Origin: Ruditapes philippinarum
Taxonomy: Eukaryota
Length of the DNA stretch: 10,993 bases
Reading direction: 5' to 3'
Assembly: GCF_026571515.1 (NCBI RefSeq)
Contig: NW_026852812.1
Location: forward strand, 254,256 to 265,248
In this document: positions 121-10,993 of the stretch, piece after piece
How the letters are laid out: every line of letters begins with the position of its first letter
Position numbering within the stretch: the stretch's first letter is position 1
Notes under the pieces: model-generated
Told to the model about the DNA's origin: nothing
The model's database searches: none
What the model saw: only the letters and a program-made list of their open reading frames with translations
Position numbers and translations under genes: made by a program

Positions 121-150
121 ATTTGTTTTTTTTTTTTGTTTTTTTTTTTG
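121..150. repeat. Interrupted poly-T tract (T13 G T11)
   Basis: Direct reading of the sequence. Confidence 0.9.
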
Positions 151-3123: not shown

Positions 3124-3233
3124 TCAACCCGAGAGATCATTTGCATCAAACAAATCCTGATCGTATTTTTCCGCCTGCACAAGTCGTCCACCGAACCACC
3201 GTCCATTTAATGACTGGCAGCCTTTTTCCACTT
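3124..3233 (-). CDS. PUF60: PUF60-like terminal coding exon (end of UHM, includes TGA stop at 3124-3126)
   Basis: Translation (E)[35 protein letters not shown]. Human has [36 protein letters not shown]. Acceptor tgttacag|AA. Phase is consistent with the previous exon. Cumulative CDS in the window is 1455 nt = 484 codons plus stop. Confidence 0.85.
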
Positions 3234-3317
3234 CTGTAACATAAATTCAAATGACAATTTTAATTCTGCATTATGTTTAATACAGTTATTTTTGTTTTTC
3301 CATTGCCTAGCTTTTAA

Positions 3318-3360
3318 CATGCCACCAAAACATAGAGCCTAGGCAAGCCTGCACATCCCC
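3318..3360 (+). repeat. Copy C (core only) of the dispersed repeat: GCCACCAAAACATAGAGCCTAGGCAAGCCTGCACATCC
   Basis: Core matches copies A and B at about 75-80% identity. It sits immediately upstream of an 11-bp inverted-repeat hairpin. Confidence 0.45.
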
Positions 3361-3361
3361 T

Positions 3362-3407
3362 CAGTGCAGACCATAATATATATGTCAAATGATTTTGGTC
3401 TGCACTG
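3362..3407. repeat. Perfect 11-bp inverted repeat (CAGTGCAGACC ... GGTCTGCACTG) with 24-nt AT-rich loop; hairpin / possible MITE end
   Basis: The reverse complement of 3362-3372 equals 3397-3407 exactly. Confidence 0.7.
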
Positions 3408-3506
3408 GTCTATGGCATTACATTAATCAAAAGACAGTATAACCTTTAAGAAATGTCCCGTTTCAGTACATAAAATTAACTAAAGAAGTGTAGAAATGAC
3501 AGGATT

Positions 3507-3700
3507 TGTTTGTTTGTTTGTTTCATTTTTACGCCTTTTCCCAACAGTATTTCAGTCATATAGGCGGGTAGTTTCCTAACCATCGTTCCTGGAGAGTTAC
3601 ACCAGTACTAGACTACCTTCCTCCGCACAAAACTACCAAAGCATCTCCCTGGGATCGAACCCACACCAGAGAGGTAACTGGATTACAAGTCATAGAAATG
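3507..3700 (-). mobile_element. Putative tRNA-derived SINE-like retroposon fragment with (GTTT)5 / minus-strand (AAAC)n tail
   Basis: The minus strand reads ...GTGTGGGTTCGATCCCAGGG... at about 3651-3662, a canonical tRNA B-box / T-arm motif (GGTTCGAnnCC). About 120 nt of GC-richer body follows, ending in the (GTTT)5 microsatellite at 3507-3527. No clean A box was seen, so the element may be 5'-truncated. GC content is clearly higher than the surrounding intron. Confidence 0.35.
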
Positions 3701-3935
3701 ACAGATTTTTTTAAAGAGCTTGTGTAGGAAACTATACAGCTATTTAAAGCTTATACACCTTTTGGACATATGTGACATTACCACCAACCTCTTCAATACG
3801 TTAACCTCAAATGTGAACCTTTTGCCCTGATAATGATGTTTTAAGCTGTTTTGCCTCAATTGAGGTGTTTTACTATAATTTGGTTGTTTTACCTTATACT
3901 AATTCAGATGTTTTACTCTCTTTCATTCAACTTAC

Positions 3936-4125
3936 CAGCAGAATCGCTGAATTCTACAAATATTTTCACAATAACTTCAGCATCATCTTCTTCTCCCTGT
4001 CTTTCCTGATATATAATTACTCTGTTCACCTGTCCATACTTGCCGCATTCATCCGATACCTCGGCCTGTAACTCATCATCTAAATCCTCCGGACCTACCA
4101 TATTCTTCAATACCATTACTCTACT
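3936..4125 (-). CDS. PUF60: PUF60-like coding exon (C-terminal UHM / RRM3 domain, first part)
   Basis: Translation [63 protein letters not shown]. Human has [63 protein letters not shown]. Acceptor gttttcag|AGT, donor GCTG|gtaag. 190 nt, phase 0 to 1. Confidence 0.9.
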
Positions 4126-4825
4126 CTGAAAACAGAAATATTTATTTACGAAATGCTTTTCTTGTATCATATTTTTCTCTCTCTTTTTTTCCTTTAAGTT
4201 TTAGGTTTCACTGACACTGTTACTTTCTAGCTTGATTGCAATAGTGGGACCACTGATGCACACACTAGTTGGCCTTCAACTCCTTGGATTGTTTTACTAC
4301 TAAAATGTTCGAATTACTAAAATCAAAGGTGGAAAATATAAAATAAATTTCTTAAAAAATTTGGTGACTTTCTAGCATAACTAAAGTACGACTATGGCGC
4401 CATTCATTGCACTATTTCATGCATGCACAGAAACTCAAGTTGAACCAATTACGTACAATGAGCTTACTGAATAAAATTAAAGATATATCATGCTCATCCA
4501 TGCATAAAATATTTTTATCACAGAAATTTATTGAAATCTATGAAATTCTTACCAAAAATGTCAAATTTAAATAAAAGAATCAATAAACTATGTACTGGAA
4601 GTTGCGTTCCCTACTACAGGTCAAGTATAAAGTTAGTCTTTTCTTAATAAAAAAATGCCAACTATAATGTATATATTCATATTGTAACCACCATATAGTG
4701 TGTAGAATTTTAAACATAACATATCTACTTAGTAAGAAGTCAAAAGATGTTTATCTTATATTAAGAGACTGTGTAGCAAATATCAATATTTTTTAACATC
4801 AAATTTGAGTACAGTACATTTTGAA

Positions 4826-5004
4826 GTAATACTCACTTGAGATTGTCTCATTAATTTCTGCAATTAATTAATTAATTAAGCAGTTAAGTAATTTCTGTAA
4901 TACTCACCTGAGATTGTCTCATTAATTTCTGCAATTAATTAATTAATTAAGCAGTTAAGTAATTTCTGTAATATTCACCTGAGATTGTCTCATTAATTTC
5001 TGCA
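4826..5004. repeat. 71-bp tandem repeat, about 2.5 copies, spanning the exon/intron boundary of coding exon 4979-5220 and duplicating its 5' splice site
   Basis: Copies lie at 4826-4896, 4897-4967 and 4968-5004, with unit gtaatactcacctgagattgtctcattaatttctgcaattaattaattaattaagcagttaagtaatttct. The last copy is contiguous with the exon's 3' end. The minus strand reads ...CTCAG|GTGAAT (used donor), CTCAG|GTGAGT (copy 2) and CTCAA|GTGAGT (copy 1). Confidence 0.85.
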
Positions 5005-5220
5005 TCACCATGTGCCGCGCGTTACTACCACTAATCTTCATCGTCTCTTGTTGTTCTAATGTTTGATTTACTTCTTCCTCTGCCATCTTCTTCTCAGCTT
5101 CTTTCTTCTCTCGTTCTTTCTCTTTCTCCTTCTCTCGTCTTTTCTCCGAGTCCGAGTCCACCATTGAAGAGATCGCAGCCTGTAAACTGTTTCCTGTCGT
5201 TGGCGGCATCATAGATGATA
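4979..5220 (-). CDS. PUF60: PUF60-like coding exon (E/K-rich low-complexity region and segment preceding UHM)
   Basis: Translation (V)[80 protein letters not shown]. Human has ...[47 protein letters not shown]. Acceptor attattttag|TA, donor CAG|gtgaat. 242 nt = 2 + 80 codons. Confidence 0.85.
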
Positions 5221-5740
5221 CTAAAATAATAAATATATTTAGTGAGAATATAGGATAATTGTAAACATGTACGTCAAACGAGAGTACTTTACTTTTGCTT
5301 AACTGACAACAAGAATTACAAATTGAGGAATTATTATCATCATCTTAGCCGGGTCAAATGGCAACTTTGTCAGCTTTATTTAAAGCTGGAGACCACAAGT
5401 ACCTCACAGTGCATTATTTCAATTACAAGGAGAGCACCTACATGCAAGAAGAACTGTAGACCTTATGTAAGCAAACTTGATTGCTACCTCACAAGATAGT
5501 GTTCAAAGAGCAATATGGTATTGATATGATTGTAAATGTAAGCAACAAAAGGGCAAACAGGTGAGATTCAAATCGGCAGCAGTAAGAACGATGTGTTTCA
5601 AAGTCAGCAACCAAAGCTACCCAGCAATTAATTTGAGATCAGCATAAGTAACCAAATGAGAGTATGTTATCTGATTCTTAAATGTTTACATGATCAATCT
5701 TTATCTTTATCATACATGATTTCAGTTGGGTTTTTCAGAC

Positions 5741-5850
5741 TATTTAATTTAACTCGTACCCTGCTGGAACCGAAAATGATCAGTCTTTGCCACAAATATA
5801 GAGCCAGGGCAACCTACATCTCTATAGTTTTACCAGTCTTTATACTGTTG
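5741..5850 (+). repeat. Copy A of a short dispersed repeat (core TTTGCCACAAATATAGAGCCAGGGCAACCTACATCTC...ACTGTTGCTGGC), intronic, antisense to host gene
   Basis: Aligns over about 100 bp with 8586-8690 (copy B) and over the core with 3318-3360 (copy C). All three lie on the plus strand inside introns of the minus-strand gene. Confidence 0.6.
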
Positions 5851-5975
5851 CTGGCTTATTCTTTTTGTATTCTGATAATAAATTTCTTCAAACATCAAAA
5901 TGACTTTTTTAACTCCAAGCAGGGCAAAATTGTTACACAAATTCAAAACGTAAAGGATTAGGAAATCTCTGTTAC

Positions 5976-6174
5976 CTTTAGGAAGAGCTTTAGGTCCCGC
6001 CAAGCCTGCAGTGACGACACCTGGTGGTGGTATATTTGCCACAGTGGGCGGAGCTATGCCTAGAGACTGTGGTATAACTACACCAGGGCCTCCAATCATG
6101 TTAAGGTCAGCTTGTAACCCTAATTTTGGGCTACCTGTAACACCCAACTGGGTTGGGTTTACTACGCCTGGAGG
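5976..6174 (-). CDS. PUF60: PUF60-like coding exon (Pro/Gly/Val-rich linker)
   Basis: Translation PPGVVNPTQLGVTGSPKLGLQADLNMIGGPGVVIPQSLGIAPPTVANIPPPGVVTAGLAGPKALPK. Human has [41 protein letters not shown]. Acceptor tttcag|CCT, donor AAAG|gtaac. 199 nt ends in phase 1, matching the next exon's 2-nt start. Confidence 0.8.
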
Positions 6175-6473
6175 CTGAAATTAGAAATATGCATTTTGAA
6201 AAGAAGAAAATGTACTTAAAACAATGTCCAGCTCAAGGTGGCTTCAAAAACTTACATTAAGAATTCACAAAGTATTAATTAATTATTATAATCAATTGAA
6301 AAAGAATGAGACTCATTACAATCCACATGTCTACAAAACCTGTCTGCAAGAAAATTGAAAATTTCTTTTCCCTTCAGTAAAGGTGACCTTTCAATAAATG
6401 TCTTTTCAACATGTCAAATAATCATATATAAAATTAATATATAACATTTGTATTTGTATGTTTCTCCACTTAC

Positions 6474-6605
6474 AATAAGCTGCTGTTGAGCATCCATTGC
6501 TGTTATTTTAGCAGTGACTGCTGCAGCTGCTACTGCTGCTGCTGTTGGCATAGCGCCAAGACCTGGTGTCTGAGGCTGCATCAATACATCTGGTGGAGTT
6601 ATTGC
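6474..6605 (-). CDS. PUF60: PUF60-like coding exon (Ala-rich linker)
   Basis: Translation [44 protein letters not shown]. Human has [38 protein letters not shown]. Acceptor ttacag|GCA, donor ATT|gtaag. 132 nt = 44 codons, phase 0 to 0. Confidence 0.85.
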
Positions 6606-6692
6606 CTGTAATATACCAATTATAATTTATTGTCTATACGCAAGATATATAAACTATAGCAGATTAATCTGAGCTTTATCTATTTTTATACC

Positions 6693-6754
6693 TAGTGATA
6701 AAAGATCTATGTTTATTATTTTTTAGTGATGAAAGATCTATGTTTATTCTTATC
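6693..6754. repeat. 31-bp tandem duplication in intron (tagtgat[a/g]aaagatctatgtttatt x2)
   Basis: Direct reading. Copies lie at 6693-6717 and 6724-6748 with a 6-bp spacer. Confidence 0.8.
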
Positions 6755-7105
6755 ACTATTATTTGTACGTCCACTTCCTAAACAAATTGGCACTGGTTGT
6801 ATAAATGACCCCTGAAGAACTTAAATAATTGATTTATTTCGCAAGATATTTCTTGGGTTATGTATTCATTTTTCTCAAACACAAAGACATCTTTTAAATT
6901 TTTGTTCATTAAGTTCTTAAGTGCAAAGTAGTATCCATTCTTAATTATATTTTAATAATAATTTTATAAATGGCAACCTTAAATCATTGTCTGTATCAAA
7001 GTATATGTACACAATAATTGATAAAACAAAATGTATTTCTTTGACTTGTAGCAATCATTGTAAAACCAGAATAATTATAAATATTCATCACCATTCCAAT
7101 ATACT

Positions 7106-7194
7106 TAATACCAATACAAATATACAAAATAATCATTGAAATATACATAATACCCATACAAATATACAAAACAATCATTTCAATTATTTCACTT
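7106..7194. repeat. About 44-bp tandem duplication in intron (taatacc[a/c]atacaaatatacaaaa[t/c]aatcatt...)
   Basis: Direct reading. Two adjacent diverged copies. Confidence 0.7.
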
Positions 7195-7355
7195 ATTTCA
7201 CATATTAATCATTCAACTACACAAAATGACCATTCTATTTCAAATATGCACCAAAACTATTTAAATATACACAAAAACCATTCAAATTTACTCAAAAATA
7301 ATTGTTACTTTCCTAATTGACAATTGAAATATACATAAAAATATCAAATACTTAC

Positions 7356-7458
7356 TCTTCCTACTCTAAGGTATTGTCCTCCCAGATCAAACAGATTCAT
7401 GGATGCCACAGCATCTGTTGCTGATTGAGAATTTGTGTACTCTATAAAACCATAACCC
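7356..7458 (-). CDS. PUF60: PUF60-like coding exon (RRM2 RNP1 GYGFIEY and C-terminal part)
   Basis: Translation (K)[34 protein letters not shown]. Human has [35 protein letters not shown]. Acceptor ttgttgcag|G, donor AGA|gtaagt. 103 nt = 1 + 34 codons. Confidence 0.9.
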
Positions 7459-7720
7459 CTGCAACAAACATAAAACAATCATTACCATTTTTTTCTCTCT
7501 TTTTGTTCAGGAAATAGATATTGATTTTGAGTGAGTAAAAGTAGAATAATGCACCATTCCACCTCAAATGTGCAATATTTTGGGGAAAAATGTGGAGCAT
7601 TATAGAATATATGATTAACAAAACATTTTTACATGGATCTGATCAGAACTAATTCAATCACTATGGACAGATTATATCTTATGCCTAGTAAGTTAGTTTC
7701 CTGAACTGTTCAAAGACATA

Positions 7721-7900
7721 ACATTTAGTTCCTAGACAAAACATCTAGTTCCTAGACATAACATCTAGTTCCTAGATACAACATTTAGTTCCTAGACGTA
7801 ACATCTAGTTACTAGACATAACATTTAGTTCCTAGACATAACATTTAGTTCTTAGACATAACATTTAGTTCCTAGACATAACATTTAGTTCCTACACATT
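7721..7900. repeat. Intronic 20-bp minisatellite, 9 units, consensus ACATTTAGTTCCTAGACATA
   Basis: The window contains exact 20-bp periodicity: acatttagttcctagacaaa / acatctagttcctagacata / ... for 9 consecutive copies with point substitutions. Confidence 0.9.
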
Positions 7901-8400
7901 GCATTTGAGAGTTTATGCATGCTTCACTACCCATATATTCCTAAAATACCCTCTTATGTAAGCAAACTCCATTTGTCAGTGAATCTAAATAAACAGGATA
8001 TGTTTGCAAACATAAAAGCCATGTCCCAAAAACTGTTGCCTTGCAACAGTGACTGAAATTTTTTACAATGAAATATTTAACCTTAAGGTCAAAGTCATTT
8101 ACAAGCAGCATTTCAATAAATCAAAATGTATTCAATATGTCAAAATACAGTTTCCAGCCCTCCCGCCACCACCCATTATCCACAAAATATGTTGAATCTA
8201 TATATGTTTATCTAACAGAGATGATATGGCCAAAATTTAATGTTGTCCAACCTCAGACAGACCAATACCTGTACATGTGAGACCATTTATCAATACATGG
8301 ACACAAATTTTATAGAAATATCTTTAAACTCATATATACAACAATGCAAAAGATATCAGATACATTGACTTCTGTTCTGACTACCAAGTATGAAACTTAC

Positions 8401-8478
8401 TTATGTCTTAGTCCTCCTTTAGATGTTGGATCTTTAATCAGCATACAGCTTACAATTTTACCAAATGCTTCAAACACA
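8401..8478 (-). CDS. PUF60: PUF60-like coding exon (RRM2 middle)
   Basis: Translation (S)[25 protein letters not shown](K). Human has [24 protein letters not shown]. Acceptor tatttcag|T, donor AA|gtaagt. 78 nt = 1 + 25 codons + 2. Confidence 0.85.
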
Positions 8479-8585
8479 CTGAAATATAAAAATATAATCA
8501 ATTACAGCATTAACTTTGTTGAATTATATATGCTATTAACTGGTAGCATAAAATGTTAGCATTACTGCAGCTGCAAAACATTTAC

Positions 8586-8690
8586 ACTTACCCAGCTGAC
8601 ACCAAAAGTGAAAAGCTTTTGCCACCAGTATAAAGCCAGGCCAACCGTACATCTGAGAGTAGCCTGACCAGGCCCTACACTGTTGGCTGA
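8586..8690 (+). repeat. Copy B of the same dispersed repeat (TTTGCCACCAGTATAAAGCCAGGCCAACCGTACATCTG...ACTGTTGGCTGACC)
   Basis: Shared blocks with copy A: GA.ACC.AAAA.TGA..AG..TTTGCCAC...TATA.AGCCAGG.CAACC..ACATCT....TAG....CCAG.C..TA.ACTGTTG..TGGC. Confidence 0.6.
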
Positions 8691-8817
8691 CCAAATTCAA
8701 CTTTCCCATTTATATCCTCAAAATTCATTATGGACAATTCCAAAAATGAATGTTGGACAAGTTCATTCAAAGAAATCAGCAAATGAAGTGTTAATACATA
8801 CTCCAGTACTGTAAATG

Positions 8818-8820
<3 letters not shown>

Positions 8821-8849
<29 letters not shown>
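8821..8849. repeat. (AC)14 dinucleotide microsatellite, intronic
   Basis: cacacacacacacacacacacacacacac was read directly. It produces the spurious CVCVCVCV ORF on the minus strand. Confidence 0.95.
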
Positions 8850-8853
<4 letters not shown>

Positions 8854-9073
8854 CTTGTCTTATTTTTCCAAAATGTAACAAAGAACATCCTAAAAGAAGG
8901 TTACACTTCTGTAAAAAACATGCTTGTTTCAAAGAAATCTTCATCTTTCAAAAATTAATCTTTAGCGAAATACACCTTTAAAGAGTTACATTAACTTTTT
9001 ATATGCCCCAATTAATGATGAGCAGTGTGTAATATGTAAATATCTTGAGGTTAATTGATATTAGTTAACTCAC

Positions 9074-9201
9074 CTTGAGATATCTTTCTCTGTAAGGTCT
9101 GGATGTATGGAGGCTATATAAATTCTATTGTAGTTTTTAGCTTCTGAAGCAATCTGCTCTATAATAGGCTGTGCTTGCGGCATATTGCTAGGTCGACCAA
9201 C
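9074..9201 (-). CDS. PUF60: PUF60-like coding exon (inter-RRM linker and start of RRM2, RNP2 IYIASI)
   Basis: Translation [42 protein letters not shown]. Human has [42 protein letters not shown]. Acceptor gtttacag|GTT, donor AG|gtgagtta. 128 nt, phase 0 to phase 2. Confidence 0.9.
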
Positions 9202-9763
9202 CTGTAAACAATAACAATAAATTCATGACAATCTATAACCCTTGACTCATTTCTTATTTACTTGTATCTACGGGTTAAGATGTTGTTTAGGATATCTTGG
9301 GTTTTACAAAAGTTTTCATTCTGTATAAACTTCTGTATAAAGTGAGCCTGCGGCAAGATTTATAACATCTCTGAACCAAGATTGAAGAAATGACAACTTA
9401 TATAAGATGTGTTTATCAAAGGATATTATTATTTAGTCAAACAGTTAAATTACAGCAAAATCATTGTGATGACCTATTTTTTTTTTATAAAATGTCAACA
9501 ATTGAATAAACAAATGTTTGATGACCTCATCACTTTTACATTAATTTTGTGAAATATGAAAAAAAAAACAAGTGATGATTATATTGCAAAATAAACGGGT
9601 CATAATTGCCCTAAATTGCTCACCTCTGATCATTGATAAGAAAAGTCATAATATCTTCAAAGCAAGGAGTCAGGTGAGCTAAAAACATATTTTATCCATA
9701 GGAAATAGACGTAACAATCTCCCTTTAGAAATAATCAAGTCTCAATAAATTAGTAAATCTTAC

Positions 9764-9977
9764 CTTTATATTTCTGCCACCAATCATTACACCATTCATC
9801 TGTTCCAGTGACAACTGAGCAGCCTCTGGTATATCATACTCTATGAATGCAAACCCCTTGTGTTTGTTTGTAATGGGATCCCATGACAGGTTCACACTTT
9901 TGATAGGACCAAATGGCAGGAACGCTTGTTTTATAGTGTCTTCTTTTATTTCAAAGTTTATACTTCCAACATATATT
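9764..9977 (-). CDS. PUF60: PUF60-like coding exon encoding RRM1 (RNP2 IYVGSI and RNP1 KGFAFIEY)
   Basis: Translation (R)[71 protein letters not shown]. Human PUF60 has [72 protein letters not shown]. Acceptor ttttcag|A, donor AAG|gtaag. 214 nt = 1 + 71 codons. Confidence 0.9.
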
Positions 9978-10544
9978 CTGAAAATATAATAAAGAAGAAA
10001 GATGGATTATAAAGTGACACATATTCAGTTAGTTTGATTGTTTTGATTGATTTGAAGTTACACTGGCACTGTCATGATCCTATGGCACCTTCCAGCTTTA
10101 CTGATGAATGAAGACCTCAGGTGTCCCTTCCTGCTTTATTTACAGCACAAACAGGCATCTAAGTAGAACCACCAACCTTCCATAACTAGATAGCTTCCTC
10201 ACTTAAAAGAATCCAAAGTCTCTCACAGGAGATTTACAGTATTCAAGACAAGGTACAAAAGTAAATTATGCTTGAAATACTGCAGTCAGAAAATGTTTAG
10301 AAAAGACGTTACTTATTATGATACTTGCAACTTTGAATGAAATATTATAATTTATAAGTCGTATGATAAATTTTATTTCTCCTACCAGAGCTCTGTGCAA
10401 CATAAATAGATCCTGGCCAGCTTGCAAACCAATATTGACAAACCAGCTTCTAGTTGCTAAATATTTTAGTCCTCAAATAGCAAAATCATTAAAACCAACA
10501 ATTGTATGGCAAGTCCATTATAAAAGAAAGGGTGGAAAGTTTAC

Positions 10545-10603
10545 CTGCACATAAGAGCCAAAGCCTGTTGTCTTTGTACTGTGTTCTGGAAATTCTGCAT
10601 TTG
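10545..10603 (-). CDS. PUF60: PUF60-like splicing factor, coding exon (pre-RRM1 segment, ...QMQNFQNTVQRQQALALMCR)
   Basis: Minus-strand translation QMQNFQNTVQRQQALALMC(R) aligns to human PUF60 ...QSMAAQRQRALAIMCR just before RRM1. Acceptor tatttcag|CAA, donor AG|gtaaac. The 59-nt length leaves phase 2, which the next exon completes to AGA = R. Confidence 0.7.
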
Positions 10604-10797
10604 CTGAAATATAAATGTAACAAAGTTATGTTTCATGTAAAATTTGTGACCTATTTTCTATTGTCATTAACACAGACTTACTTCATGTGCCCTTCACTAC
10701 TTTTCATGGTGATTTATATGTGAAACAGGTTTTTGCAACTTACAATGACCAAATTTCAACACTTTCATGTCCACATCCATGTGATAAAAAACTTGTT

Positions 10798-10812
10798 CCC
10801 CCCCCCCCCCCC
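10798..10812. repeat. C15 homopolymer (G15 on the gene strand), intronic
   Basis: ttcccccccccccccccggtg was read directly. It gives the PPPPP runs in the plus-strand ORF track. Confidence 0.95.
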
Positions 10813-10993
10813 GGTGCGCAATCTCACAACTCCACCTTTTTTTGGGATGATCCCATTATTCTGCCATCTTTTTGGTTTTAAACATATTTATTCAAGCTTG
10901 ATTGCGAAACAAGTTCTTGCAACTTATATTATTATATTATTCACTCGAGCTCTCTTCCTGGAACCAACCAGTACTGGTGTCATATGAAGAAAC

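Follow-up and report, generated by a model that had tools for sequence, protein, structure and literature searches.

Ten terminal exons of a gene for the splicing factor PUF60 (half pint) in a genomic window of Ruditapes philippinarum

Exon-intron structure of the gene

The window analyzed here is a 10,993-nt stretch of Ruditapes philippinarum DNA (contig NW_026852812.1, positions 254,256 to 265,248), and all coordinates given below refer to its whole length. It almost certainly carries the last ten exons of an ordinary PUF60 (half pint) splicing-factor gene, which lie on the minus strand between positions 10603 and 3124. An earlier note, made from the sequence alone, had joined these ten exons out of a region where the list of open reading frames (ORFs) contains three fragments (3913-4170, 4955-5212, and 5830-6147). 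The intervals were extracted, spliced, and translated, and every coordinate of that model, its AG/GT borders, its length of 1455 nt, its 484 codons, and its final TGA proved to be exact, as did the three ORF fragments. The exon sizes (59+214+128+78+103+132+199+242+190+110 = 1455 nt) maintain frame 0 open across 484 codons up to the TGA at 3126-3124, the other two frames being full of stops. All acceptors end in AG (nine CAG and one TAG) and all donors start with GT. Since the introns measure 299-942 bp and the window is AT-rich (25-39% G+C), this is eukaryotic nuclear DNA. The exons are the following, "exon 1" being the first exon within the window:

10545-10603, minus strand: exon 1, 59 nt, encoding QMQNFQNTVQRQQALALMC/R; upstream of RRM1, an internal exon of the gene
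9764-9977, minus strand: exon 2, 214 nt; RRM1, with RNP2 (IYVGSI) and RNP1 (KGFAFIEY)
9074-9201, minus strand: exon 3, 128 nt; end of RRM1 (VGRPSN), inter-RRM linker helices, and start of RRM2 (RNP2, IYIASI)
8401-8478, minus strand: exon 4, 78 nt; middle of RRM2 (VFEAFGKIVSCMLIKDPTSKGGLRHK), with a three-residue insertion relative to human
7356-7458, minus strand: exon 5, 103 nt; RNP1 of RRM2 (KGYGFIEY) up to LRVGR
6474-6605, minus strand: exon 6, 132 nt; Ala/Pro-rich linker (PTAAAVAAAAVTAKITA); nucleotides 100% identical to transcript contig L003
5976-6174, minus strand: exon 7, 199 nt; Pro/Gly/Val-rich linker, diverged between species; nucleotides 100% identical to L003
4979-5220, minus strand: exon 8, 242 nt; E/K-rich stretch and the conserved segment ETMKISGSNARHMVMQKLMRQSQ before the UHM
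3936-4125, minus strand: exon 9, 190 nt; N-terminal two-thirds of the UHM, comprising the acidic helix A region and then VNRVIIYQE and VIVKIFVEF
3124-3233, minus strand: coding part of exon 10, 110 nt including the TGA; rest of the UHM, including its Arg-X-Phe motif (GRWFGGR), and C-terminus DLSG

Exon 1 is flanked by the acceptor tttcag and the donor GTAAAC, and its protein sequence is 100% identical to that of PUF60 from the bivalves Mercenaria, Mactra, and Dreissena; its join to exon 2 is gapless in the transcript contigs L003 and L004 (see below). The earlier note had placed the N-terminus of the protein outside the window, and this was borne out: tblastn searches of positions 10604-10993 with three clam PUF60 proteins (E <= 10) revealed no upstream exon before the QMQNFQ sequence, and the extension of the alignment to 10606 corresponded to the acceptor CAG, which happens to read as Gln. 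About 390 nt separate the counterpart of exon 1 in Mercenaria mercenaria from the end of the coding exon before it, so here that preceding exon must sit just past the window edge. At the other end of the gene, the stop codon is at the same position in all orthologues.

Identity of the encoded protein

The translation of the spliced exons contains two tandem canonical RRMs with their RNP2 and RNP1 motifs, and it was matched twice by Pfam RRM_1 (E = 1e-39), one of the matches covering residues 21-91. Its C-terminal region is a UHM that, at the level of sequence, aligns end to end with the UHM of human PUF60 (PDB 3ue2; E = 7e-51), and both hallmarks of this domain are found at the positions aligned to 3ue2, namely GRWF for the Arg-X-Phe loop and, for helix A, an acidic region. 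Two central RRMs and a C-terminal UHM constitute the domain layout of PUF60 (PMC7703929), and an Arg-X-Phe loop together with an acidic helix A defines a UHM (PMC7648758). The Ala/Pro linker and the E/K-rich stretch, which the earlier note had described along with RRM1, RRM2, and the UHM, were present as well.

Searches against PDB gave the highest scores with human PUF60, both for the RRM1-RRM2 region (3uwt; 323 bits, E = 3e-95) and for the UHM (3ue2; 171-175 bits, E = 5e-49 to 7e-51), and the fold can be considered settled because of the sequence identity to these solved structures. RRM and UHM folds are common to RBM39 (CAPER-alpha), U2AF2 (U2AF65), and SPF45 (RBM17), and all three appeared as weaker matches in the same searches, which would allow the gene to code for one of these U2AF-related UHM splicing factors instead of PUF60. 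However, the scores of those families were far lower (SPF45 UHM, 66-70 bits; RBM39 RRM, 62; U2AF65, 46-49; HTATSF1, 38-45), and this gap refutes such an assignment, to which we give a negligible probability. The RRM-RRM-linker-UHM architecture fits PUF60, and an N-terminal RS (Arg-Ser) domain, as would go with U2AF2 or RBM39, is missing: no Arg-Ser repeats were found in residues 1-109 of the full-length R. philippinarum RefSeq proteins that contain the window product. The identification as a PUF60/half pint orthologue made in the earlier note is thus retained: the best matches were to PUF60, and a best match to RBM39/HCC1 or U2AF2, which the note itself had named as grounds for abandoning this identification, was not obtained.

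A search of a 5.8-billion-protein database (E <= 0.001) retrieved 2173 homologues. Among the best 120 of these 2173 matches, 76 carried a name and 44 were nameless; all the named proteins were PUF60, half pint (hfp), or had generic labels, and none of the 76 was another splicing factor. The top match was the protein from M. mercenaria (93% identity, E = 7e-298). Among the matches listed, those from other heterodont clams were 82-90% identical, and insect half pint and fish PUF60 proteins were 56-59% identical. Drosophila half pint and its insect orthologues matched the query along its full length (100% coverage) with 56-59% identity, and insect half pint is more distant from the clam protein than the molluscan PUF60s are.

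The 90% cluster of the top match includes two R. philippinarum RefSeq proteins annotated as PUF60-like, XP_060564677.1 and XP_060564676.1, which differ from each other at the N-terminus only. Both end in exactly the 484 residues of the translation (residues 58-541 and 110-593, respectively), identity extending over all window-encoded residues through the C-terminus. This exact identity, together with the E value of the top match, excludes chance. The exons for the first 57 residues (541-residue isoform) or the first 109 residues (593-residue isoform) are not in the window; the earlier note had estimated a missing N-terminus of 80-100 residues, which corresponds to neither isoform. The gene and exactly its protein are therefore already in RefSeq, and there is nothing new at the protein level. 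PUF60 is a conserved and well-studied metazoan splicing factor whose clam copy had been annotated already, so the result has little significance past quality control. Its yield is methodological: ten exons of a eukaryotic gene, including every junction, had been correctly rebuilt from raw sequence by a reader without tools. Judged by protein identity, the window is nuclear DNA of a bivalve, R. philippinarum or a relative hardly distinguishable from it, and tools designed for prokaryotes are not applicable to it.

The clam protein was compared with structures of human PUF60 (also FIR), namely 3uwt, 2qfj, and 5kw1 for RRM1-2 and 3ue2 and 3dxb for the UHM. The architecture is shared: in both, RRM1 and RRM2 are followed by an Ala/Pro linker, an acidic/basic stretch, and the UHM. 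Identity was 75% in RRM1 and 73% in RRM2, 71% when RRM1-linker-RRM2 was taken as a whole, and 69% in the UHM region, slightly lower than the 75-85% that the earlier note had given for these blocks. The RNP1 and RNP2 motifs and the Arg-Trp-Phe motif of the UHM are conserved in the clam, and the segment NIKVGRPSN after RRM1 is identical. In contrast, the inter-domain linkers are diverged and differ in length, as had been anticipated, and the clam RRM2 bears an insertion of three residues (KGG/L).

By homology with the characterized human and fly proteins, the predicted binding targets of the two RRMs are U-rich polypyrimidine tracts located upstream of 3' splice sites, and those of the UHM are UHM ligand motif (ULM) peptides from SF1, U2AF65, and SF3b155, which it would contact with its Arg-X-Phe loop and its acidic helix A. 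Acting together, RRMs and UHM might help to recruit the U2 small nuclear ribonucleoprotein and influence how weak 3' splice sites are chosen. For human PUF60, two RRMs and a UHM, RNA-induced dimerization, and cooperation with SF1 have been described (PMC7703929), and passages of two further papers also deal with its binding to poly(U)/polypyrimidine RNA and ULMs and with the use of weak 3' splice sites (PMC1888729, PMC6093180).

The orthologous gene of M. mercenaria (PUF60-like, XP_053407072.1; CM038767.1, 27.43-27.46 Mb), as annotated, contains all ten exons, arranged as in the window. Its introns are unalignable with those of the window and mostly longer. Residues 1-162 of the Mercenaria isoform X1 aligned by tblastn to one contiguous stretch of 468 nt of the Mercenaria locus (L001, 11727-12194; 72% identity). 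Judging from this alignment, the X1-specific N-terminus (MIHLKIIYVF...) looks like a putative intron-derived alternative first exon that would continue without a break into the coding exon after it. The alignment itself extends beyond residue 103.

Transcript support and the triplicated exon-8 donor

Two contigs, L003 (SRR12737815, 1845 nt) and L004 (SRR12737795, 1640 nt), were taken as spliced RNA because each of them carries an uninterrupted ORF of 541 codons. The spliced model together with an extension into the 3' untranslated region (UTR) aligned with L003 over 1531 nt with 98.6% identity and with L004 over 1469 nt with 98.4% identity, in both cases with 0 gaps. The 1455-nt coding sequence is thus gapless against two independent contigs, and all nine junctions are supported by RNA, which is the check that the earlier note had proposed for its exon borders. 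When L003 was mapped onto the genome, it split into exactly the ten exon blocks, and past the stop codon it stays collinear with the genome for another 76 nt of 3' UTR. In two further clam species, too, transcript contigs are divided at these exon borders.

The coding sequence of the window differs from L003 and L004 at 20 and 23 positions, respectively, over 1455 nt, and 11 sites distinguish L003 from L004. All the differences between the window and the contigs are synonymous, and they fall at third positions save for two first-position changes. This pattern indicates that purifying selection is acting on a functional gene, and it fits allelic variation under such selection; it likewise indicates that diversity at silent sites is high while the protein is invariant.

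The locus might be a silent, non-functional duplicate of PUF60 whose frame is still open, all the more as one locus alone was examined in R. philippinarum. A pseudogene of this kind is nevertheless very improbable: the exon-intron structure is intact, the splice sites are canonical, the translation is identical to the expressed product, and the 20-23 differences from the transcript contigs left that product unchanged. Nor is it a retrocopy, since its structure is collinear with the Mercenaria gene. Nothing that was observed contradicts the reading as an ordinary expressed PUF60 gene, which has some limits. The origin of L003 and L004 in RNA-seq runs was deduced from their intron-less ORF rather than from metadata, and the coding bases of the window differ from them by about 1.5%, which may reflect a different haplotype or, less likely, a sister species. 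In addition, the window does not reach the 5' UTR, the promoter, or the codons for the first 57-109 residues, and L003 covers the 3' UTR as far as 76 nt beyond the stop codon, 12 AATAAA/ATTAAA hexamers being scattered 150-2821 nt beyond it. An ordinary housekeeping gene coding for PUF60 remains by far the best reading of the locus.

The junction between exon 8 and intron 8 is repeated in tandem in the window, whereas it is single copy in M. mercenaria:

4826-5004, minus strand: tandem repeat with a 71-bp unit, 2.5 copies, 98% matches; end of exon 8 and intron 8

The repeated unit spans the 5' splice site of exon 8 together with the last 26 nt of the exon and some 45 nt of the intron. Of the three donor copies in tandem, the first (CAG|GTGAAT at 4979/4978) is the one in use in the transcript contigs. 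Copies 2 and 3 form in-frame pseudo-exons of 21 nt (4928-4908 and 4857-4837), which are flanked by AG and GT and each encode KLMRQSQ; their sequence is AAATTAATGAGACAATCTCA[G/A], preceded by TTGCAG and followed by GTGAGT. The GTGAGT of these two copies is nearer to the consensus than the GTGAAT of the used donor.

This arrangement could give rise to an extra isoform, either by inclusion of one or two 21-nt micro-exons, which would insert KLMRQSQ before the UHM, or by use of a downstream donor, which would yield a truncated product and a likely target of nonsense-mediated decay. Their CAG acceptors and consensus donors, their length of exactly 21 nt in frame, and the pyrimidine content of their acceptors (0.55, inside the range of 0.45-0.85 of the real exons) speak for inclusion of the copies. 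However, both L003 and L004 splice 4979 directly to 4125, at the start of exon 9, skipping the copies; isoforms with 7 or 14 additional residues were absent from exact look-ups among 15 billion proteins; the two RefSeq products differ nowhere but at the N-terminus; and reading on past the first donor leads to a stop codon within seven codons. An additional isoform is accordingly improbable. We also consider it quite improbable that this lineage-specific triplication is more than neutral, be it as a source of KLMRQSQ micro-exons upstream of the UHM or as a set of decoy donors through which the transcript of a splicing factor might be self-regulated. The triplication is most economically read as a neutral tandem duplication of recent date in intron 8; it might also be an artefact of the assembly.

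Other sequence in the window

Searches for further genes in the window were negative. Rfam gave two matches in the introns at E <= 1, both at chance level and far below the gathering scores, and ARAGORN called no transfer RNA (tRNA). The ten longest ORFs on either strand outside PUF60 were without Pfam match, and the Mercenaria locus, taken with 3 kb of flank on each side, contains no further gene call. No conserved elements such as poison exons were detected in introns or 3' UTR when the window was compared by blastn with the Mercenaria locus and the transcript contigs of two other clams, which gave the exons and two non-syntenic interspersed repeats only. The remaining non-coding sequence consists of micro- and minisatellites and interspersed repeats, as follows:

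126-137, plus strand: homopolymer T12, inside a T-rich stretch (122-149)
577-915, plus a further diverged block at 940-1083: tandem array of an 18-bp unit, consensus ACATGTATCTTGGAACAT, about 18 copies, 72% matches
About 3505-3700, minus strand: SINE (short interspersed nuclear element)-like element in intron 9, with a tRNA B-box-like sequence (GGTTCGATCCC) and an (AAAC)n tail, without ARAGORN tRNA call
7714-7899: minisatellite of 20 bp in intron 4, 9.3 copies, 89% matches, AGACATAACATTTAGTTCCT
8821-8849: perfect (CA)14.5 microsatellite in intron 3, (GT)n on the gene strand
10078-10215: interspersed repeat in intron 1, 77% identical to a non-syntenic intron site of Mercenaria (L001, 19179-19321)
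10798-10812, plus strand: homopolymer C15, which is G15 on the gene strand, upstream of exon 1

Measured from the stop codon of the gene, the 18-bp array is about 2.0-2.5 kb downstream. The 3' part of the SINE-like element (3558-3505) matches a non-syntenic site of the Mercenaria locus (L001, 10226-10280) with 82% identity. The repeat in intron 1 is presumably, on the basis of its similarity to the Mercenaria site, a fragment of a transposable element common to venerid clams.

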